From UHGV virus genome UHGV-1383976: a stretch of 64,000 nucleotides of DNA, one strand, 5' to 3'. The DNA is from a virus. Below are positions 14,582 through 52,343 of the stretch, one piece after another. The notes beneath the pieces are model-generated. The model was not told where the DNA came from, made no database searches, and saw nothing but the letters and a program-made list of their open reading frames with translations. The translations under genes were made by a program, and so were the position numbers. Numbering within the stretch: the first letter of the stretch is position 1; each line of letters starts with the position of its first letter.

Positions 14582-17500
14582 TTACTCACCCCTTACGTGC
14601 GTTGTAATGCGACCATATTCATCAATGTCTGTTATTTCTTCGATTAGATGATATGGAGTTCGGGAGTATTTCTTTGCCAGAAACCCGTCATCCCTTCTAA
14701 TACCACACACAATAATCTTGTTGCCGCGTGAAAAGATCGATTTTTCAATAATATGCTTCTTTCCATCTGGCTCTCTTTCAGAAATTTGTTTGTCATAATT
14801 CGCAAATGCTTCTCCAAAAATTTTGACTTGAACAACACCATCTTTTGTCAATAACGAAACAATCTTTTTTGCTTTATCTCTATCCAACACAGTCCCGCAA
14901 ATACGATGTATTCTATAAATCGGAATCGGCGCGCTATCACTATCTTTGCCGCGTGGTTTGAAATAAGTTTCAACGTCAGGCTGCTCTTTCAGCTTGAAAA
15001 AGTCTGAAAAACCTTGAGCGCGCTCATCAATATTTTGCAATTCATGCTCATGGAAATAACACGAAACACTATCCATTTCCCACTTACTTATCGAGCCAAG
15101 ACAATACTTATTCCATACATCTCGCGTCAACCGCTCATTCACGGTGTCTAATAACTCGTCGTGATTTTCTTTTATCCATTTGCGAACATTATCCATATAT
15201 TTCTTATAGATTTTATCCCAAGCTGTGATACTAATTTTGAAACCACTTTCAGTTTCATCACTTGTACTCAAACAGTCGAGTGAGAAGTTTTTATCGAGAA
15301 AATTCAACGCGATATTATCCAGTCCATAGAACGAGGAATCTAACTTCATTTTTTTGAGGTATTTCGTGAAATTATAAACACGACGTTCAAAGTCAAGTTT
15401 TTCTGGTAGCATCCCAAAATTTATCAACATTGCCATATTTTGAAGGGTAATGCGTTTTTTTGTATCACTAATTAGGCCGACATATTCACGCATTAGATTT
15501 ACTCTATCGCCAAAGGCATCAAAAGCGCCGCATTTTATAAGGTTTATCATTTGTGGCTTGTTAATTTTGACTTTAGAGAGAAAGTCTGGAATTGATGTGT
15601 AGGGACGATTGGCAATTATGGATTTGACGATGTCTTCGCCGACCTTGACGATGCCGCTCATACCGTAGCGAATTGTTGAGTTTTCAACATCAGGGGAGAA
15701 GGTAAAAGTGGATTTATTGATATCAGGAGGAGAAATAGAAATCCCGGCCATTCGCATCTTACCAATCGCCGACGCAATTTTACCATAGTTGGTTGTTTTG
15801 ACTTTTTTCTTTTTCTTCTTTATATCAATTTTTTCTTCTTCTTCTTCATCATCGTCGTCATCATCTTCGGTGTCATCGACAAATTCTTCAATACAGTTAT
15901 TATAACTATATTCAATAATGTTTTCTGACGTTTCATCTTCATCATCATTTGACTCATTGCCGCCACTATCGCTAATCAAACACGCGCAATTCCAAAAAAT
16001 TGTTGGAAAACGATATGCAAGATTCATTTCCTGCAAAGCTACAAGCGAATAGGAAAGAGTGTGTGCGCGGCAGAATGAATATCCTCTCTGGACTCTGAAC
16101 AAAACATCCCATACATAATGGGCAAGAGTCATATCACAACCTTTTTCTTTTGCATTTTCAAAATAGGCTTTTTCACATTCATCAAAGAGTTTACCTTGTT
16201 TTTTTGCAATCGCCTTTCGACATTTATCCGCAAAAGTCAGATTATTTCCTCCAAGCCTTTCTTCCTGCAGAAGCTGCATCATTCCTTCTTGACTCTCACA
16301 TATACCACTCGTTATCGCATTATGTCCAATTAACCATTTTATATCTTCATTTTTTAATCCATATTGAATCATTTCGTCTTGCCATTCATTGATATTCAAA
16401 CGATATCTTGCCCACATATCAAGTGGCTGCTCGGCTCCTTTTTCAGGAGCCATTAGACGAATTACTGAATTCAAAACAGCTAATTCACTAACGTTTTTAG
16501 GATGAGTTAGTGCTATTCCAGAAATGCCACTTGGCTGTTCCATTTGGAATAAACTGGATATCTTATGATTCCAAACCATTTCCCACATTTCTGGTGCAGT
16601 TCGTTCAAGATTATATATGCCAATTACACTTTCATAAGTTTCACGTAATGTTGGCTTTCGCTCTATATAACCATAATCACATAATAAGTCTAGCTCATTA
16701 TGTATTTTATCAAGGGCTTCAATTGACAACATATCAATTTTGATTAGCGATGCATCCTCCGCATCGTGAAGCTCAAAAGCCGTGATGACTGTGCCATCAG
16801 GCGCGCGAGTTAACGCTGTCGATTCCGTAAAAGGCTCGTCAACGAAGATTACTCCACCGGCGTGAACACCAATGCCGCAAATTAGCCCCTCAATTTTTGA
16901 AGCAACTTCCCAAACATCGCTGTAGGTTTTCATTGCTTCAACAAATTGTTTTACTGGCTTAAAACCTTTGTCTTCATCGCCCTTTATACATTGAGTAAGT
17001 GAGCGAAGTTGCCCACGATCGGCTGGAATCAGAGACGCCAAATAGGATGCTATATCAACATCAATTCCCAAGCCGCGGCAGGCCGTTAAAATTGCCGATT
17101 TAGATTTTTCTGTTTTGAATGTAATAACATTCGCAACTCTGTCTTCTCCATAAAACTCACGGAACTTCTGTAAAACTTGTGCGCGACGTCCACCTTCAAT
17201 ATCGGTATCGACATCCAATACTGAAGCTCGTTCGGGATTAAGAAAACGCCAATGAAATACTTGAGTTTCTTCTTGGACTGGATTTATCTGTGTTATATCC
17301 AATGCATATAACAAAGTAAATCCTGCACCCGAACCACGCCCCGGCCCGACAAGAGAACCAGCTTCCCAACATAAATCAATATTTTTCTGCAGATTCAGAA
17401 AATAAGTCGACCAATGTGTATGATTCGTTATTGACGAACGCCATGTATCATCAAGACAAATATTTATCTCATCATACGCTCGTTTGTTCTGCAAGCCCGG

Positions 17501-18571
17501 CTTCCGCTGGATGCCATCAATAATCGCCCAAACCAGTTTTCTATCACCCCAATAATCAGAGTTATAGAAAGTTTCCAAATAAGGGATTTCTTGTTTGAGA
17601 ATATCATATGCTGCCTCATCTTCAGGAAAAGTTTTCCAATAAAGTTCTGGAATTTTTAAGGGCCGCATTAGTGAAAAATCCTCACACATTTCACCTATTT
17701 TGAGAATATTGCAATATGCGAGTTGAAGTTGCTCTTCAGTGAAATAGTTGAAATACTCTTCTATTTCTTTTGTATCCATAAGATACGTAGTTGCATAGAA
17801 ATCATCTACTTCTCGCTCACCATTTTGTGCATTAAGATATGCTTTATGAATCGCGCAGTCTTCTTTTTTGAGATAATGGCTGTCAGTTGTTATAACATAG
17901 GAAATGTCATATTTAACTGATAATTCAAGCAACTTCTTATTTACATAAATCTGCTCTTTGTTATAACTTGGTTGCATTTCAAAAAAGAAATTACCGTGCC
18001 CAAAAAGTTTATCCAAAGACAAAATCCAGTTTTCAATTTTGCCATTGAGTGAGCTATCATTTCGCGCTTTGAGAAGCTGAGTAGGAAGACAGCCGCCAAG
18101 ACAAGCTGTCATTCCCACAATATGCCCCGGATTGGCTCCCACGATTTCAAACAAATCACTATAATAAGTTGGCATACGACGCATACCTCGCGCCATATAA
18201 CTACGCAATCCTGCGCGAGTAGATAATTCTCTAATTTGTTTATGCCCGATTGCATCTTTAGCTAACAAGATAAAATGATAATATTTATCTTGTCCCGCAA
18301 TAAAATTCGATGCGTTTAACCCATTTCGACAAAGATAAATTTCATTTCCTTGAATGAATTTGAAATCAGGACATTTTTCTTTTACTTTTTTATAATACTT
18401 TTCTGCCTTAATCGCGCCAGATATTGATTCATGGTCTGTAAGAGCGACGACTTTATGACCTAACTCGATGGCGCGATCAATTAGGTCTGAGACTTTTATT
18501 ATACAGTCTCGAAGCCTTTCATTAGAATAATCCGAATGATTATGTAGCGATCCGGGATACGGAATATTCAA
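14582..18571 (-). CDS. DNA polymerase III alpha subunit (DnaE/PolC family, N-terminal PHP domain)
   Basis: 1329 aa. The N-terminal PHP motif HNHSDYS...LTDHESISG matches the Pol III alpha PHP domain. Contains an acidic/Lys low-complexity insert (DDDDDDEEEEEKIDIKKKKKK). Confidence 0.85.
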   Translation of the reverse strand: MNIPYPGSLHNHSDYSNERLRDCIIKVSDLIDRAIELGHKVVALTDHESISGAIKAEKYYKKVKEKCPDFKFIQGNEIYLCRNGLNASNFIAGQDKYYHFILLAKDAIGHKQIRELSTRAGLRSYMARGMRRMPTYYSDLFEIVGANPGHIVGMTACLGGCLPTQLLKARNDSSLNGKIENWILSLDKLFGHGNFFFEMQPSYNKEQIYVNKKLLELSVKYDISYVITTDSHYLKKEDCAIHKAYLNAQNGEREVDDFYATTYLMDTKEIEEYFNYFTEEQLQLAYCNILKIGEMCEDFSLMRPLKIPELYWKTFPEDEAAYDILKQEIPYLETFYNSDYWGDRKLVWAIIDGIQRKPGLQNKRAYDEINICLDDTWRSSITNHTHWSTYFLNLQKNIDLCWEAGSLVGPGRGSGAGFTLLYALDITQINPVQEETQVFHWRFLNPERASVLDVDTDIEGGRRAQVLQKFREFYGEDRVANVITFKTEKSKSAILTACRGLGIDVDIASYLASLIPADRGQLRSLTQCIKGDEDKGFKPVKQFVEAMKTYSDVWEVASKIEGLICGIGVHAGGVIFVDEPFTESTALTRAPDGTVITAFELHDAEDASLIKIDMLSIEALDKIHNELDLLCDYGYIERKPTLRETYESVIGIYNLERTAPEMWEMVWNHKISSLFQMEQPSGISGIALTHPKNVSELAVLNSVIRLMAPEKGAEQPLDMWARYRLNINEWQDEMIQYGLKNEDIKWLIGHNAITSGICESQEGMMQLLQEERLGGNNLTFADKCRKAIAKKQGKLFDECEKAYFENAKEKGCDMTLAHYVWDVLFRVQRGYSFCRAHTLSYSLVALQEMNLAYRFPTIFWNCACLISDSGGNESNDDEDETSENIIEYSYNNCIEEFVDDTEDDDDDDEEEEEKIDIKKKKKKVKTTNYGKIASAIGKMRMAGISISPPDINKSTFTFSPDVENSTIRYGMSGIVKVGEDIVKSIIANRPYTSIPDFLSKVKINKPQMINLIKCGAFDAFGDRVNLMREYVGLISDTKKRITLQNMAMLINFGMLPEKLDFERRVYNFTKYLKKMKLDSSFYGLDNIALNFLDKNFSLDCLSTSDETESGFKISITAWDKIYKKYMDNVRKWIKENHDELLDTVNERLTRDVWNKYCLGSISKWEMDSVSCYFHEHELQNIDERAQGFSDFFKLKEQPDVETYFKPRGKDSDSAPIPIYRIHRICGTVLDRDKAKKIVSLLTKDGVVQVKIFGEAFANYDKQISEREPDGKKHIIEKSIFSRGNKIIVCGIRRDDGFLAKKYSRTPYHLIEEITDIDEYGRITTHVRGE

Positions 18572-18599: not shown

Positions 18600-18635
18600 A
18601 TATATTATATCAAAAATTAGCCTAAAAGTCAAACT
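18600..18635 (-). promoter_or_regulatory. Consensus phage promoter upstream of the polymerase gene
   Basis: Minus strand TTGACT (18627-18632 on +) - N17 - TATAAT (18604-18609), with extended GATATAATATATATA. Confidence 0.55.
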
Positions 18636-19717
18636 TAAAAGCTCCACTCCGCGTTTTCGACTTCAACATCTACGATTTGCAATTGGGGGGTGTAATTTCC
18701 TAACCATTCATTAACATTGGGTTTACCCACAATTGTTAAACACATTTCAGGCCATTTATGAAGCTTTTCAATCAAGTCTTTTGCACGGAACTTTATGTAG
18801 GTAATTCCATTTTTTTCAATTCGTATTGTATCTTGATTCTTGCCGATTATTTTTACATCATCGGGTTTTATATAGAGGTTTGTTATCGCTATAAGACTCT
18901 GAGGATTATTTTGACCCCAAACTCTTTCGTAGCGTGCCAAATCAAAAATAATGTTGCTTATATCACTATCACTTGCCTTGCGAACGAAATCGACGTCATA
19001 GTTATTATTACCAAAGTCATAAGATGCCAATTGGGTATTAGAAAGATTCAGTAGTTCATTGCGGCTGTTGGCTGGAATAGCAAACCCAGCAGCGTTAGCG
19101 TGCCCTTGCACATAGTCAAACAATGACGTATCTAACAAATAGTCTTTGAACGACGTGAGCGCACTCTGCGAAAGTCCTCTAATACTTCCCTTTATCATTC
19201 CATCTGAGCCTTCGCGTCCTATCATTGTTGGCTTATGGTATCGCGCGCTAAGTTGCGTGGCAATTAGACCATTCAGCTCAGGAGGAAAGTCATCATCGTC
19301 ATCAAGTTTAACAAACAAAATTTTATTTTCTAGCAAATCATACTTGTGTATCTTATACTCAAGTTGCTCGGTTGCTTTTTCTTTTGCCTTATCTTGATGC
19401 GACTTTGCATTTGTACATTCGCGCGTGCTTTCAATTGCGAGCTTTTCAAGTGTTCCTTTTGCCCCGCGCTTGCCACTTGGCACAAGTGTTTCACCCATAA
19501 CAACTGCACGATAAAGGCGCTCTTTTTCCTCTTGAGAACCTACACGAATCATTGCATTTATCAATGGTGTTATGTAAAATGCAACAGTTGTCGGATTGAT
19601 CTCACCGCCCATTGAGTAGGACTGTTTTTCAACAAGAGTTTTGAGAAAAAAGTTTTGTATGTTAGAACAACCACGCTGAACAATAAATTGATTTTCATAA
19701 GACAACATACTCATCAT
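18635..19717 (-). CDS. RecJ-like ssDNA exonuclease, C-terminal part (DHHA1 region)
   Basis: The motif VQGHANAAGFAI resembles the DHHA1 GGGH motif. Its N-terminus (MMSMLSYENQFIV) continues the RecJ motif IV region that ends the upstream DHH ORF. Confidence 0.6.
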   Translation of the reverse strand: MMSMLSYENQFIVQRGCSNIQNFFLKTLVEKQSYSMGGEINPTTVAFYITPLINAMIRVGSQEEKERLYRAVVMGETLVPSGKRGAKGTLEKLAIESTRECTNAKSHQDKAKEKATEQLEYKIHKYDLLENKILFVKLDDDDDFPPELNGLIATQLSARYHKPTMIGREGSDGMIKGSIRGLSQSALTSFKDYLLDTSLFDYVQGHANAAGFAIPANSRNELLNLSNTQLASYDFGNNNYDVDFVRKASDSDISNIIFDLARYERVWGQNNPQSLIAITNLYIKPDDVKIIGKNQDTIRIEKNGITYIKFRAKDLIEKLHKWPEMCLTIVGKPNVNEWLGNYTPQLQIVDVEVENAEWSF

Positions 19718-20714
19718 ATCGCTTATGCTTTAGCCTATATGTTTCCATATAGAATAGACTATCTTTTGCTATAAAAATATAGTGTGTCTCTTTCGATTTT
19801 CAAAGGTTTCATTTCTTAACACCTTGCTACGTATCAATAGTAGCTCTACTCCCCAGCATTTCAACCTAAGGGATAGTCGTTACAGGCTTATTTTACGTGC
19901 TTCCATGTTATATTATCGCAGACTCGTGAAATAGTAATATAAGAAACAAAAGAATATTGTTGACTAATTTGAGTTTTTGTTTTTCCTTGAGAATAAAGAT
20001 TTCGAATATTACGGACGTCCTGCTCCGTCAGTTTGGCTTTGACATTATTTTCTCCTCTATTTGCGATTGATGAATACTCTTGACGAGTTTTCTTTTCTGC
20101 AAATAATTCTTGTCCAATTTCAGGGTATGTTGTTCCCAACCAAACTTTTTCAAATACAGAGAACTTTCTGTCAGAAAAGTCTCTATATACTTCGCATTTT
20201 CTTTCCCCGTTTTTCTTCCTTTTTCTAATCCATAAAATTTCTTCATCAGAAAAAGAACGTCTAGTTTTTCTTTTTTCTTGCCCGCCTTCGGTTAAATTAT
20301 ATCCAAAATCTTTTTCATTCGCTCGGAAATATTTTATCCAGTATTTTTCTTTTTCATCTAATTCTTCGGGCAAACATTCTTCAAGGATAACAATTCTTTC
20401 TACTCGACCAAAATATTTTTTTATAGCTAAATCACAAGCCTGTTTATTTGAGCTGGGAGTATTATGCTCCCACATCCGTCTTTTTATATTAATACTTTGT
20501 CCAATATAACATTTATTATTTGGAAAATCAATCTTGTAAATACCACAAATATTTTGCTCTAAATCAGAAATTATAACTTGTTTCATAGTCCTCCTTTTTG
20601 GAGGCACGTAAAAAATTCCCACGGGATTACCATGCTTTTCAGTTTAGGTTTCCCCGTTAGCATATATTTCTATATACCCTTACTGATAAGTAAGAAAAGA
20701 CACATTCGCACCAT
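19718..20714 (-). mobile_element. Candidate group I intron (or HEG insertion) splitting the RecJ-like gene. Carries a GIY-YIG endonuclease gene.
   Basis: About 1 kb between the two RecJ halves. Contains 92 nt non-coding 5' of the HEG and 170 nt 3' of it. The 3' part has an R-like element (AACGACTATCCC, + coords 19871-19882) and an S-like element (AAGATAGTCT, + 19753-19768) that can pair as P7. Confidence 0.5.
19888..20622 (-). CDS. GIY-YIG homing endonuclease
   Basis: N-terminal CGIYKIDFPNNKCYIGQSINIKRRMWEHN is a GIY-YIG motif. Has a C-terminal DNA-binding-like region and a strong RBS (AAAGGAGG). Confidence 0.75.
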   Translation of the reverse strand: MGIFYVPPKRRTMKQVIISDLEQNICGIYKIDFPNNKCYIGQSINIKRRMWEHNTPSSNKQACDLAIKKYFGRVERIVILEECLPEELDEKEKYWIKYFRANEKDFGYNLTEGGQEKRKTRRSFSDEEILWIRKRKKNGERKCEVYRDFSDRKFSVFEKVWLGTTYPEIGQELFAEKKTRQEYSSIANRGENNVKAKLTEQDVRNIRNLYSQGKTKTQISQQYSFVSYITISRVCDNITWKHVK

Positions 20715-21344
20715 TCAGTCGATGCCTAATGCAGCTAAATCTGTATAATTCCAAGCCCAATCGTGTCCAAATGCATCATCAAGTGCTCTACAAAACTGCC
20801 ATACAACACCAGCACCACATAGGTCTTTATTCTTGTAGGCGAAGCTTGTCTGATTATTTATAAGAATCATATTGGACGGGATTTCACTTATAGGTTCTAA
20901 TTCGTGATGGTCAAGAACCAATACGGGGCAATCTAATTGTTTAATATACTCGCCATCATTAGTCCCGGCATCTGGAATTAGAACACCGCTCCAACTATGT
21001 TCAAGTAATTGTTCCATCACATCACTACAACCGTGCTGCTTACCACTATGTATTATCTGTATAATATGTTTTACAGGATTGAGTCGCTTTATATATTGAT
21101 AAATAATGCCACTTGATGTCAAGCCATCAGCGTCGCAATCACAAATAATAGCCAGTGGTTTTTCATCATCAATGTTTTGCTTGATAAATTCAATACCCTT
21201 ATCCACATTGTCAAGTGCCCGCCAGCTTTGCAGGCAGGTTTCGTCAGGATTCAAGAACAGCTCAACATTTTCAATCCCTCTAAGCCGTAAAATTTGTTCT
21301 CCATAATTATCATATATTCCATCATTTGTCAATTTATATTTCAC
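20715..21344 (-). CDS. RecJ-like ssDNA exonuclease, N-terminal DHH domain part
   Basis: AIICDCDADGLTS (motifs I/II), LVLDHHE (DHH motif) and a C-terminus ...DLAALGID (motif IV region). GTG start. Confidence 0.65.
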   Translation of the reverse strand: MKYKLTNDGIYDNYGEQILRLRGIENVELFLNPDETCLQSWRALDNVDKGIEFIKQNIDDEKPLAIICDCDADGLTSSGIIYQYIKRLNPVKHIIQIIHSGKQHGCSDVMEQLLEHSWSGVLIPDAGTNDGEYIKQLDCPVLVLDHHELEPISEIPSNMILINNQTSFAYKNKDLCGAGVVWQFCRALDDAFGHDWAWNYTDLAALGID

Positions 21345-44044: not shown

Positions 44045-44130
44045 GCGGGTGTGTCGGAATGGGTAGACGATATGGACTTAAAATCCATTGGCGGGATGCT
44101 GTACGGGTTCGAGTCCCGTCACCCGTACCA
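44045..44130 (+). tRNA. tRNA-Leu (anticodon TAA), type II
   Basis: Cloverleaf by eye. Anticodon stem atgga/tccat with loop cttaaaa, a long variable arm, T-loop gggttcgagtccc and encoded CCA. Confidence 0.75.
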
Positions 44131-44313
44131 AATGATAATAAGTAGTGCAGTGAATTCTTCCTAAGCCAATGTGTATGGTAGGCCAATCAAGATAATTAGG
44201 GTTAAGTATTCATGGGTCATGCACGGCTCTGCTTATTATCATTACCAACTGTCGTTCTCAATAGCGACTTAGAAGCAATTCTCAAAAAGTATCAAAAAGA
44301 AAGGAGAAAAGGG

Positions 44314-45216
44314 ATGTCATTTTTCGTAAGGACAGCAACTGATCGGTATGGGGATACAAATAGTTATCCTCGTTGGGGCAGAATAGTGGGATGCGCTATA
44401 GGAGCACTACTTGTTCTGATTATAATTCTCTCTTGTTTCACCAAAGTTCCTACTGGTAATACTGGTATCGTCACTACATTTGGTAAGGTTGAGAATTATA
44501 CGCTGGATTCAGGTTTTCATCTAAAGGCTCCATGGCAGAAGATAGTTAAGATGGATAATCGCGTTCAGAAGCAGAGTATTGATTTGATGTGTTTTTCTTC
44601 TGATATTCAGGAAGTATCTATGACTTATACAATTAACTTCCAGATTAGTAAGAGTGATGCAATGACGATTTATTCTACCATCGGAACTCATTATTATGAA
44701 ACCGTTATTATGCCTTGTATTACTGAGTCAGTTAAGACAGTTTGCGCACGATATACCGCTGAAGAGTTAGTGGGCATGAGAAGTGAACTTGCTTCAGCAA
44801 TAGAGGCAGATCTTTCTGAGAAGCTAATTAATTACAACATAGAGCTTGTTTCTACCTCTGTTGAGAACATGGATTTTACTGATGTCTTTACTGATGCTGT
44901 TGAAGCAAAGCAGGTTGCAGCACAGAATAAGCTCACTGCACAGACTCGTGCCGAGCAGGAAGTTATTGAAGCCGAAGCGGCGGCTAAGGTTCAGGTAATT
45001 CAGGCACAGGCTGATGCAGATGCCATGGTTGCTAAGGCCCAAGCCGAGGCAGAAGCAACTCGGATTCGTGCAGAAGCTGAAGCAGAAGCCAATGCAAAGG
45101 TCGCAGCGTCTCTAACAAATGCACTAATTGATTATACTTATGCGCAGCATTGGGATGGTAAGTATCCTACCTATTATGGTGGTAACGGTACAACTCCTGT
45201 TATCGATCTTAGATAA
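44314..45216 (+). CDS. SPFH/band-7 (prohibitin/HflK-like) domain protein with Ala/Glu-rich coiled-coil tail
   Basis: The listed ORF (44212) starts inside the tRNA spacer. The real start is the ATG at 44314 (RBS AAAGGAG). A TM segment is followed by the SPFH core (TGNTGIVTTFGKV...) and AEAEA repeats. Confidence 0.65.
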   Translation: MSFFVRTATDRYGDTNSYPRWGRIVGCAIGALLVLIIILSCFTKVPTGNTGIVTTFGKVENYTLDSGFHLKAPWQKIVKMDNRVQKQSIDLMCFSSDIQEVSMTYTINFQISKSDAMTIYSTIGTHYYETVIMPCITESVKTVCARYTAEELVGMRSELASAIEADLSEKLINYNIELVSTSVENMDFTDVFTDAVEAKQVAAQNKLTAQTRAEQEVIEAEAAAKVQVIQAQADADAMVAKAQAEAEATRIRAEAEAEANAKVAASLTNALIDYTYAQHWDGKYPTYYGGNGTTPVIDLR

Positions 45217-45254
45217 ATAAATGAGCTGGCATCTCAATAAACTGCCATTAATAT

Positions 45255-45330
45255 GCCCAGATAGCTCAGCAGGTAGAGCAGAGGATTGAAGATCCCCGTG
45301 TCGCTAGTTCGATTCTGGCTCTGGGCACCA
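45255..45330 (+). tRNA. tRNA-Phe (GAA)
   Basis: 76 nt with perfect acceptor gcccaga/tctgggc, anticodon loop ttGAAga, T-loop ttcgatt and CCA. Closely resembles the canonical bacterial tRNA-Phe (GAA) anticodon arm. Confidence 0.85.
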
Positions 45331-45501
45331 TTTGGGATTGTTTACTGTTTCTTGTTCCCTTAATTGCAAAAGTGCATGAGTAGCAATTAAAAAACATCTA
45401 AGCGGCGTGTATCGTTGGTCATTCGAGGGCTATGTCAAGGCTTAAAAGACCACAGTCGATTGGGGTTGGTAAACCTCCTGCGGGGAAGCTTCCATTATTA
45501 T

Positions 45502-45584
45502 GGGCGAGTGGTGGAACTGGTAGACACAGTAGCCTTAGGAGCTACCACTTCAGTGTAGGGGTTCGAGTCCCCTCCCGCCCACCA
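45502..45584 (+). tRNA. tRNA-Leu (TAG), type II
   Basis: Anticodon stem gtagc/gctac with loop ctTAGga, a long variable arm, T-loop ttcgagt and CCA. Confidence 0.75.
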
Positions 45585-45704
45585 TAAGTCTCCAAGAGGA
45601 TGGATTCCGGCTAAACTACCACCGGCGCACAATGTGTGATATGTGGCTTTGTCATTTGTGGAGACTATAATAAATAAAAACGAAAGTAAGCCGTTTTGAA
45701 ATAT

Positions 45705-45789
45705 GGGGGATTGGTGAAATAGGTAGACACGTGGCACTCAAAATGCTATGGCGAGAGCCGTATCAGTTCAAATCTGATATCCCCTACCA
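45705..45789 (+). tRNA. tRNA-Leu (CAA), type II
   Basis: Anticodon stem tggca/tgcta with loop ctCAAaa, long variable arm tggcgagagccgta, T-loop ttcaaat and CCA. Confidence 0.75.
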
Positions 45790-45812
45790 TTTACACAATA
45801 AAAGGAGATAAA

Positions 45813-46397
45813 ATGTCAAAGAATTTTTACATTAGTGACACCCATTTTGGACACGCTAACATTCTGAGATTTGATAGACGCCCATTCAATTCTGTTGAAG
45901 AAATGAACGCCGCGCTCATCAAGAATTGGAATGACGCAGTTGACCCGAATGACAATATTTACATACTGGGCGATTTTTGCTGGGGCAAGTCTGATGAATG
46001 GATTGATATTTTGTCTCAGCTCCAAGGCAACAAATATCTTATTGCAGGCAACCATGACTTGCGTAATCCTCCTTCTACTGTGCGGCGGTTCTTTCAGGAT
46101 TGGCGCGACTACAAAGAAATTTCTAACAACGATCGTAAGGTTATAATGTGTCATTATCCGATTCCATTTTACAAGTCAGATTACAACTCAAACACTTATA
46201 TGTTATTTGGTCATTTGCATACAACATTTGAGAATGAATATCTGGAAAATTTGCGATATCAAATAGAAAATGATCCTTATGAGCGGCCAGCCAAAAATCT
46301 TTGTCAGTTTTATAACGTCGGCTGTATGATGCCGTGGATGGACTATACACCGCGCACATTGGATGAAATTGTAGATGGATTTGCTAAGTTCCATTGA
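45813..46397 (+). CDS. Calcineurin-like metallophosphoesterase
   Basis: DTHFGH, GDF and GNHD motifs. 194 aa. RBS AAAGGAGA. Confidence 0.7.
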   Translation: MSKNFYISDTHFGHANILRFDRRPFNSVEEMNAALIKNWNDAVDPNDNIYILGDFCWGKSDEWIDILSQLQGNKYLIAGNHDLRNPPSTVRRFFQDWRDYKEISNNDRKVIMCHYPIPFYKSDYNSNTYMLFGHLHTTFENEYLENLRYQIENDPYERPAKNLCQFYNVGCMMPWMDYTPRTLDEIVDGFAKFH

Positions 46398-46409
46398 AGG
46401 GGAATAGGC

Positions 46410-46961
46410 ATGGCAGTAAATAAAGGATATTTAACAGCAAAAACAGATAAAGAGTCTGATGAAGTATATACACCAGCATATGCTGTTCGACCTTTGGTTA
46501 AGTATTTGCGATTTTTTGAAAAAATAAAGGGGCATCCAATAAAAATTTGGTGTCCTTTTGATACGCAAAGCTCGCAATATGTTCAAGTGTTTAGAGAAGC
46601 TGGTTTTGAGGTTATTCACTCTCATATTGAGGAAGGGAAAAATTTCTTTTTCTACGAACCCGATGAACGGTATGATATTATTATTTCGAATCCACCTTTT
46701 TCACAAAAGGACAATGTTTTGAAACGTTTGTTTGAGTTAAACAAGCCATATGCGATGTTATTGCCAATTCCAGCCTTGCAAGGGCAAAAGCGTTTCCCTT
46801 ATATAAAAGATGGACTACAATATCTTGGTTTTGATAAGAGAATTAATTATTATACTAATGCAGATTTTTCTCAAGTGCAAAAAGGGGTTTCTTTTGGTTC
46901 TTGTTATTTGTGTAAGCAATTTCTTCCAAGAGATTTAATTCTTGAAGAGTTGGAAGCGTAA
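46410..46961 (+). CDS. Phage Dam-like N6-adenine DNA methyltransferase (NPPF motif)
   Basis: DEVYTP followed by DIIISNPPFS. The small size (183 aa) is typical of phage Dam-family MTases. Confidence 0.55.
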   Translation: MAVNKGYLTAKTDKESDEVYTPAYAVRPLVKYLRFFEKIKGHPIKIWCPFDTQSSQYVQVFREAGFEVIHSHIEEGKNFFFYEPDERYDIIISNPPFSQKDNVLKRLFELNKPYAMLLPIPALQGQKRFPYIKDGLQYLGFDKRINYYTNADFSQVQKGVSFGSCYLCKQFLPRDLILEELEA

Positions 46962-46966
46962 AAAAT

Positions 46967-47054
46967 GCGGGATGAACTCAGACGGCTCTGAAACCGGTCT
47001 TGAAAACCGTGGGCAGGCAAAACCTGTGGGGATCGACACCTCCGTCCCGCGCCA
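46967..47054 (+). tRNA. tRNA-Ser (TGA), type II
   Basis: Acceptor gcgggat/gtcccgc, anticodon loop ctTGAaa (4 bp plus C-T at the stem top), a long variable arm and CCA. Confidence 0.65.
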
Positions 47055-47058
47055 ATAT

Positions 47059-47144
47059 GCGGAGTAAATTTAGAAGGTCTAAAGCTCCCCTGCTAAGGGA
47101 TGCGTGGTGAAAACCATGGGGTTCGCGTCCTCTGCTCCGCGCCA
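47059..47144 (+). tRNA. tRNA-Ser (GCT), type II
   Basis: Acceptor gcggagt/gctccgc, anticodon loop ctGCTaa, variable arm gtggtgaaaaccat and CCA. Same architecture as the neighbouring Ser tRNA. Confidence 0.65.
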
Positions 47145-47232
47145 GCCCCATCTTCAGTTCTATAGCTGGTGAAGATGGATAGGCGATGAAGTATAGCAAT
47201 AATATGGCATGAGAACTATGATAGTGTTTCAT

Positions 47233-47322
47233 GAGAGCGTAACTCAGTCGGTAGAGTTTTATAGCGTGAAGGGATATGCTATTGAATGCCCTTAGTCGCC
47301 AGTTCGAATCTGGCCGCTCTCA
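47233..47322 (+). tRNA. Aberrant tRNA-like gene (perfect acceptor, D and T arms; about 17 extra nt in the anticodon/variable region; no encoded CCA)
   Basis: Acceptor gagagcg/cgctctc, D-arm actcagtcggtagagt, T-arm gccagttcgaatctggc. The central 40 nt do not give a canonical 5-7-5 anticodon arm. A 5-bp atagc/gctat helix encloses a 12-nt loop. Confidence 0.4.
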
Positions 47323-47350
47323 TTAAAAATATATATGAAGAGGAATAGTT

Positions 47351-47605
47351 ATGGCAATTAATATCATTAGTAAAGGAATAGATTTAAATAATCCTACCTA
47401 TGAAACACAGTGTCCTCATTGTAAATGTGTGTTTACCTATCAAGATTCTGATACTACTCAAAAACCTACTGGTAGATATTATAAAGATTTTGAGGAGTAT
47501 TTCATTAAGATGGATGATTGCAATAGGAAAGAAATTGCTGTGTATATTGATTGCCCTTGGTGCCATGAAAGAAACCATGTGAAAGATAAATATGTAAAAA
47601 TATAA
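47351..47605 (+). CDS. Small zinc-ribbon protein
   Basis: 84 aa. CPHCKC...CPWCHE. RBS GAGGAA. Confidence 0.45.
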   Translation: MAINIISKGIDLNNPTYETQCPHCKCVFTYQDSDTTQKPTGRYYKDFEEYFIKMDDCNRKEIAVYIDCPWCHERNHVKDKYVKI

Positions 47606-47610
47606 TAAAT

Positions 47611-48153
47611 GGCTCAGTAGCTCAGAGGCAGAGCGTGCGGCTGTTTACTTGACCTTATCATTCTTTATGAAAAAGATAATGAATAGTAAGCAAAAAGGAA
47701 ACATTACAGAACTTGAAACAATGTTAGCATTTCTAAAACTTGGTTATAATGTTTTAACTCCATATGGAGATTGTGAGAGATATGACTTTGTTGTAGATGT
47801 TAATGGAAAATTTATTCGAGTTCAAGCTAAAACATCAAATACTGAAGATGATGGTGCATCATTTAAATTTTCTTGTAGAAGTTGCAATAGAAAAGATGGT
47901 AAAATTGTGCATCATATATATTTAAGCGAAGAAATTGATTACTTCGTAACTACTTTTAATGGAAAATGTTATTTAATTCCAGTTGAAGAGTGCGGAGCTG
48001 ATAAAAGACTTCGTATTCTTCCAACAAAAAATGGACAGGTAAGAGGTATTACTTGGGCAAAAGATTATGAATTGGAGGAAGTAGTAAAGAATTGGTAAGC
48101 TGATGTGTAAGCAACCGCAAGGTCGAGATATCGTAATTCTCCTGAGCCTCCAT
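47611..48153 (+). tRNA. tRNA (Asn GTT or Asp GTC) interrupted in the anticodon loop by an insertion of about 467 nt that carries a PD-(D/E)XK endonuclease ORF
   Basis: The 5' half is 47611-47645: ggctcag-ta-gctc-agaggca-gagc-g-tgcgg-ctgtt. The 3' half is 48113-48153: aa-ccgca-aggtc-gagat-atcgtaa-ttctc-ctgagcc-t-cca. The acceptor pairs 7/7, the D-stem 4/4 and the anticodon stem tgcgg/ccgca 5/5, with CCA encoded. Confidence 0.55.
47649..48098 (+). CDS. Small PD-(D/E)XK nuclease-like protein inside the interrupted tRNA (homing endonuclease candidate)
   Basis: ERYDFVVDVNGKFIRVQAKT is a D...(E/Q)xK signature. Paralog of 49599..49958. The start may be the internal Met at 47667. Confidence 0.5.
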   Translation: MTLSFFMKKIMNSKQKGNITELETMLAFLKLGYNVLTPYGDCERYDFVVDVNGKFIRVQAKTSNTEDDGASFKFSCRSCNRKDGKIVHHIYLSEEIDYFVTTFNGKCYLIPVEECGADKRLRILPTKNGQVRGITWAKDYELEEVVKNW

Positions 48154-48158
48154 ATTAT

Positions 48159-48234
48159 GCGCCATTAGCTCAGTTGGTAGAGCATGGCACTTTTAATGCT
48201 GGGGTCTGCGGTTCAAGTCCGCAATGGCGCACCA
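48159..48234 (+). tRNA. tRNA-Lys (TTT)
   Basis: Perfect acceptor gcgccat/atggcgc, anticodon loop ctTTTaa, T-loop ttcaagt and CCA. Confidence 0.8.
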
Positions 48235-48254
48235 TAAATTTTGGAGGAAGTAAA

Positions 48255-48515
48255 ATGAAGCTGACAGAGAAAGGGACAATTGTATTTGCCGCTGCGTTAG
48301 AGCATTGTCCCAATGAACCTTTTACAGCGGCCAGTTTATCAACAAAGTGTGGCCTTCCTATTTCTGCAGCTACACTCAATGGTATCACCAATCAGGGACT
48401 TATGACTCGACTTGGCGGTTCGCCCGTTAAGTTTGAGTTAGTTTCTAACGCGAAAGACTTGTATAACAAGGCGCGCGAAGGCAAATCGGCGAATGAAAAT
48501 TTAAATAAAGCGTAG
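48255..48515 (+). CDS. Small putative DNA-binding protein (MKLTEK paralog 2)
   Basis: The listed ORF 48174.. begins inside tRNA-Lys. The real start is the ATG at 48255 with RBS GGAGGAAG. Paralog of 26606..26860. Confidence 0.45.
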   Translation: MKLTEKGTIVFAAALEHCPNEPFTAASLSTKCGLPISAATLNGITNQGLMTRLGGSPVKFELVSNAKDLYNKAREGKSANENLNKA

Positions 48516-48581
48516 GTTGCGAAAAATGATGAGTTTTATACTCAATATCAAGACATTGAAAAAGAGATTCTGCAGTATGAC

Positions 48582-49358
48582 TTGCGTGGTAAAAAGGTTT
48601 TATGTAATTGTAATGATGGTTTGACAAGTGAGTTCTTAAATTATTTTGTCAATAATTTTGATTGTCTTGAACTTGATGAACTTGTTTGTTTGACTTATAA
48701 TAAAGATGGAAAGGCATATAAGTATACCAAGCGTCCTAAAGTTGACCTTATGGTTGAACCACTCATCGGTTCTGGTGCATTTGATTCACAGGAAGGCCGA
48801 GATGCTCTTGCCGCTTGTGATATTGTTATAACAAATCCTCCCTTTAGTCAATTTCGAGATTTTGTCAATTTGATTTTGTCTTACAAAAAAGATTTTTTGA
48901 TAATTGGCAGTAAAAATGCTATTACCTACAAAGAATTTTTTCCACTTTTAATGAGTGGTAAAGTTCATATTGGCAATTTCAATGTTTCTACTTTTAAACA
49001 GCCAGATGGTACTGATAAAAAATTTGGTAATATCGGTTGGTTTACGACTCTTTCTGTTGTAAAAGCGGCACAACCAATTCCTTTAACAGCAACCTATGAT
49101 CCGCAAAATTATCCTACTTATGATAACTTCCGTGCAATTGAAGTAAGTCGCACAGCTAATATTCCTAAGGACTATGATGGCGTAATGGGGGTTCCTATTT
49201 CATTTCTGGACAAATTTTGTCCTACTCAATTTAAAATTGTTGGATGGAGTCGTCATAATGACGAAGGAATGGATGGCGGATACTGGACGGGTGGTTGTGC
49301 TGATGCTACTATAAATGGTAAGCAAGTTTATCGCAGAATTTTGATTCAGAAAATTTGA
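48582..49358 (+). CDS. Second N6-adenine DNA methyltransferase-like protein (NPPF motif)
   Basis: CDIVITNPPFSQFRDF. 258 aa. Paralogous catalytic motif to the CDS at 46410..46961. Confidence 0.5.
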   Translation: MRGKKVLCNCNDGLTSEFLNYFVNNFDCLELDELVCLTYNKDGKAYKYTKRPKVDLMVEPLIGSGAFDSQEGRDALAACDIVITNPPFSQFRDFVNLILSYKKDFLIIGSKNAITYKEFFPLLMSGKVHIGNFNVSTFKQPDGTDKKFGNIGWFTTLSVVKAAQPIPLTATYDPQNYPTYDNFRAIEVSRTANIPKDYDGVMGVPISFLDKFCPTQFKIVGWSRHNDEGMDGGYWTGGCADATINGKQVYRRILIQKI

Positions 49359-49383
49359 TTTTTATTAAAATTTTCGATATAAT
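49355..49383 (+). promoter_or_regulatory. Consensus phage promoter with duplicated leader
   Basis: TTGATT at 49355-49360, N17, TATAAT at 49378-49383, then ATATATATAGAAAGTTGAGAGAGA, identical to the leader at 43389-43412. Confidence 0.55.
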
Positions 49384-49598
49384 ATATATAGAAAGTTGAG
49401 AGAGAAACTTCCAGAGGTTGCGAATTAGCTATTCAATACAAAATCTCTCAAAATGATAAGGTTTTCGGTGTTTTACTTATCGGTTTTCTATGCAAAATGG
49501 TTCTAACAAGCCAGCGTGCGCGCGAGTAAAAGTTGTTAATAAGCGGTTGGCATACGTGATAAGCCGTTGCCCCAGCGAGAAGATTTAATAAATCTTCT

Positions 49599-49958
49599 TT
49601 GTTGGTGGTGTTTAATAAAAATGCGTCAGTAGCAACCCAGTGGTATGATTTGATTATAGAAAAAGATGATAAATTTGAAACAGTACAATGTAAGTGTACT
49701 GGTTCTCAGAACAACGTCATTAGTCTAAAGTCTTGTGGCGGTACAAAAGGTGAAGCTTATGACAATGTTCTTAATCATTCTGGGCTTGATAAATTATTTT
49801 GCGTGGATATAAATGGTAATATGTACGTGATCCCGATGTCAGAGGTTGTGGCATCTGGAAATACTAAGCAAATTACTTTACGTACTGAACCCACAGCAAA
49901 TAATCAAGGTTTTCAAACTCATAAATTTCGAGTTCAATTCTCGTTTCAAGCGTCGTAA
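49599..49958 (+). CDS. PD-(D/E)XK nuclease-like paralog (TTG start, long 5' leader)
   Basis: Shares YDxxxxxxxKFxxVQxK...SxKSC and a C-terminal (M/C)Y(L/V)IP(V/M)xE with the CDS at 47649..48098. No clear RBS. Confidence 0.35.
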   Translation: MLVVFNKNASVATQWYDLIIEKDDKFETVQCKCTGSQNNVISLKSCGGTKGEAYDNVLNHSGLDKLFCVDINGNMYVIPMSEVVASGNTKQITLRTEPTANNQGFQTHKFRVQFSFQAS

Positions 49959-50009
49959 ACCCGTTTCCTTCGAGAGTAACTGGATCGACACCAGTCTGAC
50001 GCACCATTT

Positions 50010-50083
50010 CGGGAATGTGGTGTAATGGTAGCACACTTGATTTGGGGTCAAGGAGAGTGGTTCGAATCCAACATTTCCGACCA
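50010..50083 (+). tRNA. tRNA-Pro (TGG)
   Basis: C1-G72 acceptor cgggaat/atttccg, anticodon stem cttga/tcaag with loop ttTGGgg, T-loop ttcgaat and CCA. Confidence 0.7.
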
Positions 50084-50087
50084 AGAT

Positions 50088-50174
50088 GCTGAGTTCCCAT
50101 AGTGGTCGATTGGAGCGGTCTTGTAAGCCGCAGACTTCGTGTCCGCATCAGTTCGAATCTGATACTCAGCTCCA
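50088..50174 (+). tRNA. Type II tRNA with ambiguous anticodon (TGT by canonical parse; Tyr-like architecture)
   Basis: Acceptor gctgagt/actcagc, 3-bp D-stem, anticodon stem gcggt/gccgc with loop cttgtaa, a 15-nt variable arm, T-arm atcagttcgaatctgat and CCA. Confidence 0.55.
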
Positions 50175-50178
50175 CTAT

Positions 50179-50254
50179 AAGGGAGTAGCCCAATAGGTAA
50201 GGCAGCAGTCTCCAAAACTGAAGATTAAAGGTTCGAGTCCTTTCTCTCTTGCCA
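50179..50254 (+). tRNA. tRNA-Trp (CCA)
   Basis: Acceptor aagggag/ctctctt, anticodon loop ctCCAaa, T-arm aaaggttcgagtccttt and CCA. Confidence 0.7.
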
Positions 50255-50287
50255 ATAATTTCATTTTTCAAATTTCCTTTCTTAAAA

Positions 50288-50317
50288 TTTGACTTTTTCA
50301 AAAAATCTTGATATAAT
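50288..50317 (+). promoter_or_regulatory. Consensus phage promoter in front of the GC-rich ORF-free region
   Basis: AAAATTTGACTTTTT, TTGACT at 50288-50293, N18, TATAAT at 50312-50317. Confidence 0.55.
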
Positions 50318-50324
50318 ATATACA

Positions 50325-51060
50325 TAAGATAAAGAAAAGAAAAAGTCAAAAGGAGGACAATGCTAGTGCCACCTACACGTGGTGTCCTCTGTTTTCGCTA
50401 AGAGCGCTGGCATATATCCAATTAAATAATACTAACTCAGTGAAGACGGAATTCGATGTTCCGGCTGAGAAATTCCAGCTAGCACAGCAGAAACGAAACA
50501 AGGATACTTGTGGATACTGGACTGAGAGGCCATCGAGAGATGAGCCGAAGTAGAGCGGTCGCTCAAGTGGGAAGAAGAGCAGGAATTGTGCTGAGTGAAT
50601 CGCAAGCAAACGCAGCCGTGGAGTGGCGAGCGCAATAGACAGCTTGGTGAATAGCCAAGCCGAACCCAAGTTAGGTCTTAGTTGGTGCCTGTGGCAATCC
50701 TTGGGAAAACCAATAAGCTCGTTCCGTTGAGACGACAGGGAATGTGAAATCTGTCTTTGACACTCTACAGCATCCGAGTAGCGGAACACAACGGGGACTT
50801 ATAGAAAAGATGGTCAGTAATAATAGAAATTGCTATTTTATCTTTCTGAACATCCCGTGAAAGGTAGAGGTAATCAACCCTCTGGCGGATTAGGCGACAT
50901 TAGACACTTGGGCTATCCAAGAGTAACAAGTCAATGTTGTTGCTGGGGTAAGAAGTGTATGGGCGACGGCCTGTATGCTCAGACTTATCTCCCGCGTGGC
51001 AGAATATGCTTGAAGGTTTATCGAGGTAGGGCGAAGGCCCAGTAATATTTAGTTGGATTT
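50325..51060 (+). ncRNA. Candidate large structured non-coding RNA (about 0.7 kb, GC-rich, no credible ORF)
   Basis: Local GC is well above the roughly 36% background. Only short mutually overlapping ORFs occur on both strands, none with an RBS. The region is preceded by a consensus promoter, contains many stable local hairpins and is flanked by tRNA-Trp and tRNA-Met. Confidence 0.4.
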
Positions 51061-51064
51061 ATAT

Positions 51065-51137
51065 GGCAGGACGAGAAGGTTCTCCATTTGGCCTCATAAG
51101 CCAGATTTCGTGGGTTCGATTCCCACTCCTGCATCCA
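51065..51137 (+). tRNA. tRNA-Met or tRNA-Ile2 (CAT), short D-arm
   Basis: Anticodon stem ttggc/gccag with loop ctCATaa, T-arm gtgggttcgattcccac and CCA. G1-A72 mismatch and a compact D-arm. Confidence 0.55.
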
Positions 51138-51140
51138 TAT

Positions 51141-51775: not shown

Positions 51776-51779
51776 GAAT

Positions 51780-52340: not shown

Positions 52341-52343
52341 TTT

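Follow-up and report, generated by a model that had tools for sequence, protein, structure and literature searches.

A RecJ-like exonuclease gene of an SPbeta-like phage, very probably interrupted in motif IV by a td/Twort-type group I intron with a homing endonuclease gene

Known phage introns and the recJ-like locus

The td intron of phage T4, which encodes I-TevI, consists of P1 and P3–P9 with the additional hairpins P7.1 and P7.2, and its endonuclease ORF lies in the P6 loop and extends at its end into the structured core. Its host gene serves DNA metabolism and is interrupted within a conserved catalytic motif. A second group of well-described elements comprises the introns of Bacillus and Staphylococcus phages (SPO1, Twort, Bastillevirinae), which are IA2/IA3-like and carry a nuclease-encoding loop (PMC11878797). 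Rfam matches to them are partial and flank this loop, and one replication gene can hold several introns. The host genes reported for these introns are those for DNA polymerase, the large terminase subunit, thymidylate synthase and ribonucleotide reductase subunits; a RecJ-like gene was not reported among them (PMC11878797). In the literature that we searched, no phage recJ-like gene is described as carrying a group I intron.

Here we analysed the minus strand of a locus in the virus genome UHGV-1383976, of which a stretch of 64,000 nucleotides ("the window") was available. We conclude that positions 21344-18635 very probably represent one gene for a 571-aa RecJ-like protein, with a mobile td/Twort-type (IA) group I intron of 994 nt inside its motif IV; splicing, catalysis, homing and translational control are what we infer for this element. 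All the td features listed above recur in the window, and the partial Rfam matches and the several introns per gene recur as in the SPO1/Twort/Bastillevirinae group. The differences from td concern both host and structure. The host gene is RecJ-like instead of coding for thymidylate synthase, and the phage is an SPbeta-like one known from metagenomes only. The window intron lacks P2, has P3.1 and P3.2 between P3 and J3/4, bears an additional P7.3 after P7.2, and its P9 consists of one GAAA-capped hairpin, followed by a short tail. Group I introns are known to contain P3.1 as an optional pairing (PMC3873408).

YorK, the corresponding protein of SPbeta-family phages and Geobacillus virus E3, is 33–38% identical to the spliced product. 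The YorK-type gene is uninterrupted in the 30 best-matching cultured phages, whereas the window gene carries the intron. The neighbourhood of three relatives without an intron at this site (L001–L003) matches the yor module (YorF, YorH, DnaB-like helicase, a 348-aa ORF and Pol III alpha), and the window shares with it the helicase, the 348-aa ORF and Pol III alpha.

Table 1. Features of the interrupted recJ-like gene and its predicted intron (window positions)
Feature	Position	Strand	Description
ORF-N	21344-20715	minus	209 aa, ends in DLAALGID-stop; Pfam DHH, E=2.4e-10
ORF-C	19717-18635	minus	360 aa, starts MMSMLSYENQ, contains VQGHANAAGF; RecJ_OB, E=5.1e-11
Exon 1	20722..21344	minus	codons 1-207 and two bases of codon 208; ORF, Pfam DHH
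Exon 2	18635..19727	minus	last base of codon 208 to codon 571, stop codon included
Predicted intron	19728..20721	minus	994 nt; starts CGACUG, ends in GGCUAAAG; terminal (omega) G at 19728
GIY-YIG ORF, GTG start	20622-19888	minus	Pfam GIY-YIG (PF01541), E=1.4e-9
Homing endonuclease gene	19888..20586	minus	232 aa, ATG 20586 behind AAAGGAGG
Hairpin	20590..20604	minus	CCUCC-AAAAA-GGAGG; covers endonuclease Shine-Dalgarno sequence
P1	20708..20725	minus	GCAU (20725-20722) and intron C (20721) : guide GGUGC (20712-20708)
P10 guide	20712..20714	minus	AUG, directly 5' of P1 guide; pairs exon 2 CAU (19727-19725)
P3 5' strand	20695..20704	minus	UGUGUCUUUU; pairs AAGAGACACA at 19792-19783
P3.1, P3.2	20660..20694	minus	peripheral hairpins (20694-20679 and 20677-20660), P3 to J3/4
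P4-P5-P5a	20621..20657	minus	ACGGGG AA ACCUAAAC UGAAAAG CAUGGU AA UCCCGU
P6 and P6a	19884..20620	minus	P6 GGG/CCU; P6a UUUUACGUGC 20613-20604 : GCACGUAAAA 19900-19891
Catalytic 3' domain	19757..19878	minus	P7 5' strand, P7.1, P7.2, P7.3, P3 3' strand, P8, J8/7, P7 3' strand
P7	19878-19872, 19763-19757	minus	GACUAUC : GAUAGUC
P8	19782-19769	minus	
P9 and 3' tail	19728..19753	minus	hairpin UCUAUAUG-GAAA-CAUAUAGG; tail ends in terminal G

The exonuclease gene and its insert

An earlier note on this DNA had described a DHH-domain ORF, a GIY-YIG ORF and a DHHA1 ORF on the minus strand, and all three were recovered by ORF prediction and Pfam searches (Table 1), the DHHA1 match on ORF-C scoring 20.4 bits, slightly below the curated cut-off of 25.9. 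The non-coding stretches of 92 nt and 170 nt that it gave are right if the GTG start of the GIY-YIG ORF is used. Its reading that the DHH ORF ends at motif IV and that the next ORF continues the motif also held; the boundaries, however, are at 20722/19727 and not at the ORF ends. Comparison with uninterrupted recJ in related phages, another of its suggestions, proved informative at the level of both protein and DNA. By blastn against the relatives without an intron at the site, the breakpoints were fixed to within 1 nt at 20721 and 19727, where the alignments overlap by 1 nt; window positions 21600-20721 were 95% identical to positions 4135-5014 of L002. The L002-type intron-less allele reads GCATTGGGCCT/CATAAGCGATATG at the insertion site. 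The intronic part of ORF-N amounts to its last seven bases, C GAC TGA, and exon 2 begins with C 19727, ten bases 5' of the ATG ATG of ORF-C. In uninterrupted homologues, these two codons are the internal Met codons of a conserved D-M-M motif. Judged by these alignments, the true boundaries of the insert differ from the ORF ends.

Exon 1 carries the DHH motifs I–III and the beginning of motif IV (ALGI), while exon 2 contributes the motif IV Asp (ISD), DHHA1 (GHANAAGF) and the RecJ OB fold. Upon removal of the insert, the joined coding sequence of 1716 nt encodes 571 aa in frame and reads DLAALGI/ISDMMSML, and this in-frame excision recreates motif IV. The DHH and DHHA1 domains, the RecJ OB fold and an intact motif IV are present in one polypeptide only once the intron is removed. 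The predicted spliced junction is GCAUUAGGCAU/CAUAAGCGAU, also given as GCATTAGGCAT/CATAAGCGAT. A search with the joined product returned 4687 homologues, and the full-length ones listed were uninterrupted and 568–588 aa long, mostly 570–572 aa. The closest among the matches listed, P0001 (571 aa, uninterrupted), is 90% identical to the joined product over 100% of its length and reads DLAALGIISDMVSML across the junction. This agreement of a predicted product with an uninterrupted homologue is far beyond chance. The PDB RecJ structure 8y30 aligned over residues 43–564, spanning the junction (GIISD versus GTIAD), and the spliced product matched phrog_2484 end to end (E=2.7e-141; match 1–566, profile of 564 positions). 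In each exon, dN/dS relative to L002 and L001 was ~0.05, and the exons remain in frame; both are under purifying selection. We conclude that ORF-N and ORF-C are exons of one phage RecJ-like (SPbeta YorK-type) ssDNA exonuclease gene.

The insert encodes a protein related to phrog_7168, "homing endonuclease" (E=1e-18). Its translation shows CGIYKI, CYIGQS, RRMWEH, EKEKYWI and GYNLTEGG, which hold the GIY, YIG, Arg, Glu and Asn motif residues, and it is 33% identical to I-TevI across the GIY-YIG catalytic domain. The C-terminus (residues 177–226) matched phrog_517, "HTH DNA binding protein" (E=6e-7). Translation almost certainly starts at ATG 20586 (232 aa) and not at the GTG, and this ATG was also chosen by the gene callers used for public assemblies. 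A look-up of the 244-aa GTG-start product found no record, whereas the 232-aa ATG-start product is on record. The Shine-Dalgarno sequence in front of this ATG is covered by a small hairpin (Table 1), and similar hairpins occur in most ORF-containing relatives. Since a shuffle test of the hairpin was not significant for individual sequences, we treat it as a recurrent pattern, which may control translation of the endonuclease.

Intron fold, splice-site guides and covariation

Unconstrained minimum free energy (MFE) folding of the ORF-deleted intron yielded P1, P3–P6a and P7.1–P9, and the P3 and P7 strands cross in the order expected of the group I pseudoknot. At the 3' end of the 5' exon, group I introns have a U, and the last base of exon 1 is U 20722. 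In P1 (5 bp; loop GACUGAAU), this U pairs with G 20711, which places a U·G wobble at the splice site (MFE fold and duplex calculation). The 3-bp P10 was read off the sequences. A U before the intron and a G as the last intron base are common to the window and four other introns at the same site. The endonuclease gene is located in the P6a loop, and its 3'-terminal codons double as the 3' strand of P6a. The earlier note had pointed to AACGACTATCCC and AAGATAGTCT in the 3' flank as a possible P7-like pairing; both exist, and P7 forms between the strands given in Table 1. The P7 helix GACUAUC/GAUAGUC is nearly invariant across the alignment of the intron family, and its GACUAU/AUAGUC is common to T4 td, with which the blocks AACGGGGAA..AAUCCCGUG and UAACGACUAUCCCUU..UGGGGAGUAG are also shared. 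The hairpins P7.1 and P7.2 are present in the window and in all 36 of 36 family members; P7.3 is an extra hairpin in the 3' domain. With every sequence hallmark present, the predicted intron is td-like and belongs to subgroup IA. GUAGC at 19830-19826 was considered as P3' and dropped: its pairing is local and forms P7.2, for which relatives show compensatory changes. The true P3' directly precedes P8.

The fold was examined for covariation in two ways. In an alignment of 12 sequences, 80.5% of the cells were paired compared with 41–50% in slid controls, and 50 pairs were changed on both sides; the observed values were reached by 0 of 500 shuffles. In the second test, a custom script compared cognate with non-cognate strands in anchored segments of 29 family members, and the cognate strands paired better for 9 helices (each p<=0.0005). 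P3 was supported by both (85% paired and five pairs changed on both sides in the alignment; p<=0.0005 in the strand test). In P7.2, 100% were paired and four pairs were changed on both sides (alignment), and the P4-P5 domain (helices 5–6), which has sequence blocks in common with T4 td, was likewise 100% paired with compensatory changes. The columns of P3.1, P3.2, P6a and P9 were 51–68% paired; as these elements were poorly aligned by MAFFT, their support rests on the custom-script strand test. The two P6/P6a strands on either side of the loop or ORF reached a mean of -11.6 kcal/mol with their own partner versus -4.1 kcal/mol with others (28 distinct members). For the splice-site helices, the five same-site introns were compared. 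All P1 cells were paired (100%), with three of five pairs changed on both sides. Each P10 guide matches its own 3' exon and adjoins its own P1 guide: AUC(U)/GGU(G) in L076, ACU/AGU in L004 and L006, and UUUGUU/AACAGG in L005.

A group I covariance search, also suggested in the earlier note, gave partial matches. At the gathering threshold, Rfam gave no match in the region. Under relaxed settings, RF00028 matched on either side of the ORF with 24.1 bits (E=0.0013) and 16.4 bits, both below the gathering score of 50 bits; the partial matches lie at 20575-20657 and 19735-19859 (minus strand). The T4 td intron, used as a positive control, scored 40.3 bits with RF00028 and thus also remained below the gathering score. 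Since a proven intron falls under it, the 50-bit score discriminates little for this phage subgroup, and the null Rfam scans reflect a sensitivity problem. These include the related-locus batches, in which no Rfam match was found at E<=0.01–0.1, and 15 family loci, for which Rfam returned only unrelated introns. The full RF00028 model matched the ORF-less intron of L076 with 39.8 bits (E=8e-9).

Competing readings, proposed mechanism and meaning of the intron

The three ORFs can also be read as a split gene, in which a free-standing GIY-YIG gene invaded recJ and the phage expresses a DHH half and a DHHA1/OB half as assembling polypeptides. The two ORFs themselves, the ATG ATG at the start of the downstream one, and the three separate genes (209, 232 and 360 aa) annotated by public gene callers speak for this reading. 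The earlier note had left it open, with an independent ribosome-binding site and start for the downstream half as its mark. However, no Shine-Dalgarno-like sequence precedes ATG 19717, the bases in front of it fall within the P9 hairpin or adjoin it, and the two ATG codons belong to the motif IV D-M-M that uninterrupted homologues conserve. Intron-less alleles have homologous counterparts of the ten exon bases 5' of the ATG, and the ~260 nt of flanking "non-coding" RNA are conserved and covary as a ribozyme. A split gene would, moreover, have its catalytic motif IV cut in two. The same-site homologue in L076, 308 nt long, breaks the frame equally; as it has no ORF, it is not explicable as insertion of an endonuclease gene. 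We therefore regard a split gene as very improbable, and the opposite suggestion of the earlier note, that a self-splicing group I intron restores one polypeptide, agrees with the precise excision, the P1–P10 fold, the covariation and the guides that track their exons.

A slight chance remains with a decayed element that descends from a group I intron but has lost splicing or misses a cofactor, which would make the exonuclease a pseudogene. The sub-threshold Rfam score would fit such decay, and splicing is deduced. Against it stand the intact core helices, U·G pair, terminal G and P10 guide, an endonuclease ORF that is intact with its catalytic motifs, the low dN/dS in both in-frame exons, and an allele that is unchanged in three samples. 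We assign practically no probability to two other kinds of intervening element, an intein and a group II intron, or to an assembly chimera; nothing specific speaks for any of them. A TGA stop occurs 5 nt into the insert, whose ORF starts from an ATG of its own with a Shine-Dalgarno sequence; thus, the insert is not an in-frame intein. Neither a group II family nor another Rfam family matched. Three independent assemblies contain the interrupted allele in 100% identical form, which rules out a chimera.

In the preferred reading, an intron that splices itself out of one recJ-like transcript, the pre-mRNA would fold into a group I core. Free guanosine bound at P7 would attack the bond after U20722, which would be held in P1 by its U·G wobble with GGUGC, and the adjoining guide AUG would form P10 with the first bases of exon 2. 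The terminal G 19728 would then enter the G-site, and the exons would be joined to ALGI/ISDMMSM. The 232-aa endonuclease with its C-terminal HTH may cut intron-less alleles of co-infecting relatives, so that repair would copy the intron in (homing). Its ribosome-binding site would be locked in the small hairpin.

In four distant phage lineages, whose host proteins are 31–41% identical, homologous introns occupy the same codon position, and related introns that carry an endonuclease reside at this site in host genes that are only 31–38% identical. The 5' core motif was found in 59 viral contigs, with the 3' core 17–54 nt downstream or, where an ORF is present in P6, 154–964 nt downstream. Among species-representative bacterial genomes, the intron motif occurred in only two contigs (MAG); a protein scan of genome contigs found no relatives, and the whole region, compared by blastn with cultured phages, gave only an 85-nt core match. 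A tRNA suspected in the P8 insertion of L086 was not confirmed by ARAGORN. In the RecJ-like gene, three or more sites are used for insertion, all of them within catalytic motifs, and the same gene can hold different introns: the window is occupied at site B, and 95%-identical relatives at site C.

For annotation, the result means that the "genes" of 209, 232 and 360 aa should become one 571-aa RecJ-like exonuclease and an intron-encoded endonuclease. Because a common phage intron family scores below the Rfam threshold, automated pipelines keep mis-calling such genes as split or truncated. How group I introns and homing endonucleases are understood to work is unchanged; a known element is found in a new host gene, and the RecJ-like/YorK exonuclease joins the phage genes that host group I introns. 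Tentatively, a large phage-borne IA-type subfamily, marked by P3.1/P3.2 and P7.1–P7.3 and missed by current covariance models at the curated threshold, could have colonised the replication module of SPbeta-like gut phages, with introns and endonucleases serving as weapons of competition. The module colonised as a whole may then include at least three RecJ-like catalytic motifs, and the difference between sites B and C may fit marker exclusion between co-infecting phages, as opposed to neutral passengers.

Insertion boundaries and the joined RecJ-like gene

The earlier note described a RecJ-like gene in two pieces around a GIY-YIG gene. ORF and Pfam analyses confirmed this arrangement (see table), and every motif and distance quoted there was found in the sequence. 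Splice sites were first predicted from the window sequence alone, after U at 20722 and after G at 19728. Excision at these positions would remove an intron of 994 nt and yield a joined CDS of 1716 nt (571 aa), which reads ...DLAALGI/ISDMMSML... (slash, junction). The ORF boundaries proposed previously had to be shifted: the final seven bases of ORF-N, the upstream piece, are intronic, and the ATG ATG taken as the start of ORF-C, the downstream piece, belongs to the D-M-M of motif IV, which is present in uninterrupted homologues, with ten exonic bases upstream.

Comparison with uninterrupted recJ genes of relatives, proposed earlier as a check, revealed a colinear joined product. A protein search returned 4687 homologues; among the matches listed, the full-length ones comprised 568-588 aa, mostly 570-572. 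The best match, P0001 (571 aa), aligned with 100% of the query at 90% identity; its sequence at the junction is DLAALGIISDMVSML. In DNA alignments, window 21600-20721 matched 4135-5014 of L002, a close relative without the motif-IV intron, and the window from 19727 on matched L002 from 5014 on, with 95% identity. Thus, the insertion measures exactly 994 nt with one ambiguous C, which is settled by the rule that a group I intron follows a U and ends in G. The junction was aligned with three alleles lacking an intron at the motif-IV site. After removal of insertions, the CDSs of the window, L002, and the relative L001 each measured 1716 nt, and dN/dS was ~0.05 for both exons (compared with L002, carrying a different intron, and L001, carrying none). 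The gene plus intron (2710 nt) was 100% identical in three assemblies.

Over its full length, the joined protein matched phrog_2484, 'RecJ-like ssDNA exonuclease' (E=2.7e-141), and over residues 43-564 it aligned with the solved RecJ 8y30 across the junction (GIISD vs GTIAD). Among cultured phages, it is closest to YorK from the SPbeta family and from Geobacillus virus E3 (33-38% identity), and the gene is uninterrupted in all of the best 30 cultured-phage matches. Its neighbours in close relatives (YorF, YorH, a DnaB-like helicase, a 348-aa ORF, and Pol III alpha) match the SPbeta yor replication module. In L001, a free-standing GIY-YIG gene separates the RecJ-like gene from Pol III alpha; the window has no gene there. 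Pol III alpha of L002 was called as 933 aa only, followed by a LAGLIDADG-like ORF, while the window has one 1329-aa ORF; this is probably another intron or intein differing between near-identical phages.

Positions of features in the window and, where indicated, in related loci or in the RecJ-like protein
Feature	Position	Strand	Remarks
ORF-N, 209 aa	21344-20715	minus	ends ...DLAALGID-stop; Pfam DHH, E=2.4e-10
Middle ORF, 244 aa	20622-19888	minus	Pfam GIY-YIG, E=1.4e-9
ORF-C, 360 aa	19717-18635	minus	starts MMSMLSYENQ; RecJ_OB, E=5.1e-11; DHHA1 match near threshold
RF00028 match	19735-19859	minus	24.1 bits, E=0.0013; J8/7-P7'-P9; sub-threshold
RF00028 match	20575-20657	minus	16.4 bits; P3-P6; sub-threshold
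Shine-Dalgarno hairpin	20590-20604	minus	CCUCC/GGAGG
Insertion site, PDAG	about residue 127		after PDAG
Insertion site, motif IV	residues 208/209		
Insertion site, DHHA1 G/H	residues 416/417		window 19104/19103
ORF-less intron, L002	5639-5879		241 nt
ORF-less intron, L003	5656-5896		241 nt
GIY-YIG gene, L001	9562-10278		238 aa; 29% identical to the intron-encoded one
Pol III alpha and LAGLIDADG-like ORF, L002	6411-10014		probably interrupted
Pol III alpha ORF	14582-18571	minus	low-complexity insert, highly acidic then basic, ...SNDDEDETSEN...DDTEDDDDDDEEEEEKIDIKKKKKKVK...
Second group I intron, RF00028	53466-53741	plus	66.7 bits; above Rfam threshold
279-aa ORF	53520-54359	plus	begins inside the RF00028 match, extends ~620 nt past it; LAGLIDADG-like LLFADGS...YIDGDGS
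Array of 12 tRNA genes	44045-52415	plus	
ROOL RNA, full length	50412-51059		271.8 bits; inside the tRNA array

RNA fold and covariation

The ORF was swapped for a tetraloop, and the intron was folded without constraints. The MFE fold contained P1 (GCAU/C with GGUGC, U·G at the splice site), P3, two hairpins named P3.1 and P3.2 here, P4-P5-P5a, P6 and P6a (with the endonuclease ORF between their strands), P7.1, P7.2, an extra hairpin P7.3, P8, and P9. P3.1 is known from group I introns as an optional pairing (PMC3873408). The P7-like pairing noticed previously in the 3' flank is GACUAUC/GAUAGUC and crosses P3 as the canonical pseudoknot. Core blocks are common to this intron and that of T4 td, in which the I-TevI ORF occupies the same loop.

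A group I covariance model search, also suggested earlier, found RF00028 matches on either side of the ORF, both below the Rfam gathering score of 50 bits. This threshold is uninformative here because the archetypal, experimentally proven T4 td intron scored 40.3 bits and the complete ORF-less same-site homologue of the distant viral contig L076 (8293-8603) matched the whole model with 39.8 bits (E=8e-9). Such phage introns are therefore invisible to default Rfam annotation. Phage introns with a nuclease loop are reported to give the same partial matches on each side of the loop (PMC11878797).

Three viral contigs (L004-L006) were identified through relatives of the endonuclease. Their RecJ-like genes share just 31-38% identity with that of the window, yet are broken at the same residue, 208/209. 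The inserts there carry an endonuclease, and their 3' core is 81-85% identical to that of the window. L076 carries an ORF-less intron (308 nt) at this site. All five same-site introns are preceded by U and end in G, and every guide fits its own exons. P1 was 100% paired, with both sides changed in three of five pairs (A-U or C-G at exon position -2, C-G or G-C at -3). P10, adjoining P1 in every case, paired AUG with CAU, AUC(U) with GGU(G), ACU with AGU, and UUUGUU with AACAGG. Without splicing of the RNA, this ribozyme-exon co-variation is difficult to account for.

Core covariation was tested on a 12-sequence alignment against slid partners and 500 shuffles. Standard pairs were formed in 80.5% of cells (41-50% with partners slid), and 50 pairs were changed on both sides (18-36); none of the 500 shuffles equalled the observed values. 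Since MAFFT misaligns variable-length hairpins, each helix strand was also tested, in 29 members, for better pairing with its own partner than with partners from other members, and 9/9 helices passed (p<=0.0005). P7.1, P7.2, P8, and P9 hairpins occurred at anchored positions in 36/36 members, with differing sequences.

The endonuclease and the alternatives

The endonuclease likely starts at ATG 20586, behind AAAGGAGG, giving 232 aa; the same start is called in public assemblies. It contains all GIY, YIG, Arg, Glu, and Asn catalytic motifs, matches phrog_7168 'homing endonuclease' plus a C-terminal HTH, and is 33% identical to I-TevI over the catalytic domain. The ORF runs into the core structure, its final codons making up the 3' strand of P6a. 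The Shine-Dalgarno sequence of the endonuclease lies in a hairpin, recalling I-TevI translational control. Small local hairpins usually pair the Shine-Dalgarno in the P6 loops of further viral loci (L054, L055, L075, L078, L081, L082, L086, L096, L100, L105, and L109); in the shuffle control, individual sequences did not reach significance.

The earlier note left two alternatives, a self-splicing group I intron or a split gene. Precise in-frame excision, fold, covariation, and same-site homologues argue for the intron. That endonuclease-gene invasion left the RecJ-like gene to be made as two polypeptides is extremely improbable: an ORF-less homologue occupies the same site, the downstream half has no Shine-Dalgarno sequence, exonic bases lie upstream of the ORF-C ATG, and ~260 nt of RNA structure covary. 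Only slightly less implausible is a dead intron, group I by descent with splicing lost, against which stand the intact core elements and the constraint on the exons. An intein was excluded by a stop codon 5 nt inside the insert. The group I intron is by far the most probable reading.

Spread of the intron family

A 5' core motif search found 59 viral contigs. Where contigs reached far enough, the distance to the matching downstream 3' core was 17-54 nt in ORF-less members and 154-964 nt in those having an ORF in the P6 loop. The family is essentially phage-borne, with these 59 viral contigs compared with 2 MAG contigs in the genome collection. It also interrupts homologues of the window's 348-aa ORF, and further hosts, judged from upstream-exon sequences alone, resemble topoisomerase/GyrB-like, helicase, Pol III alpha, and NrdD genes. 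In the intron of L086, P8 contains a large structured insert of ~190 nt; it has two T-arm-like motifs (GGUUCGAAxCC), and ARAGORN called no tRNA there. The window's second intron appears to split a gene between an upstream ORF (53161-53481, ending in Walker-A-like GVFGSGK) and a downstream ORF (54409-54942).

RecJ-like genes of the fetched loci carry insertions at three positions. In L076 (6841-8112, 8303-8612), L070, and L096 they are broken after PDAG, some also at the motif-IV site; L076 has both. The motif-IV intron is absent from L002 and L003, two phages with 95% identity to the window; they carry an ORF-less one of the same family in the DHHA1 'GH' motif, between G416 and H417, with U before, G at the end, and the P3.1/P3.2/P7.1/P7.2 layout of the window. 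The number of insertion sites in this gene is thus three or more, and every one lies within a catalytic motif.

The host genes named in a recent survey are those of polymerase, terminase, thymidylate synthase, and ribonucleotide reductase (PMC11878797), and in the literature searched no paper connected phage recJ-like genes with group I introns. Judged by its sequence, the window element is an ordinary group I intron of the mobile type, carrying a GIY-YIG homing endonuclease. Its closest design is T4 td/I-TevI, and the new part is its host gene, a phage recJ-like gene.
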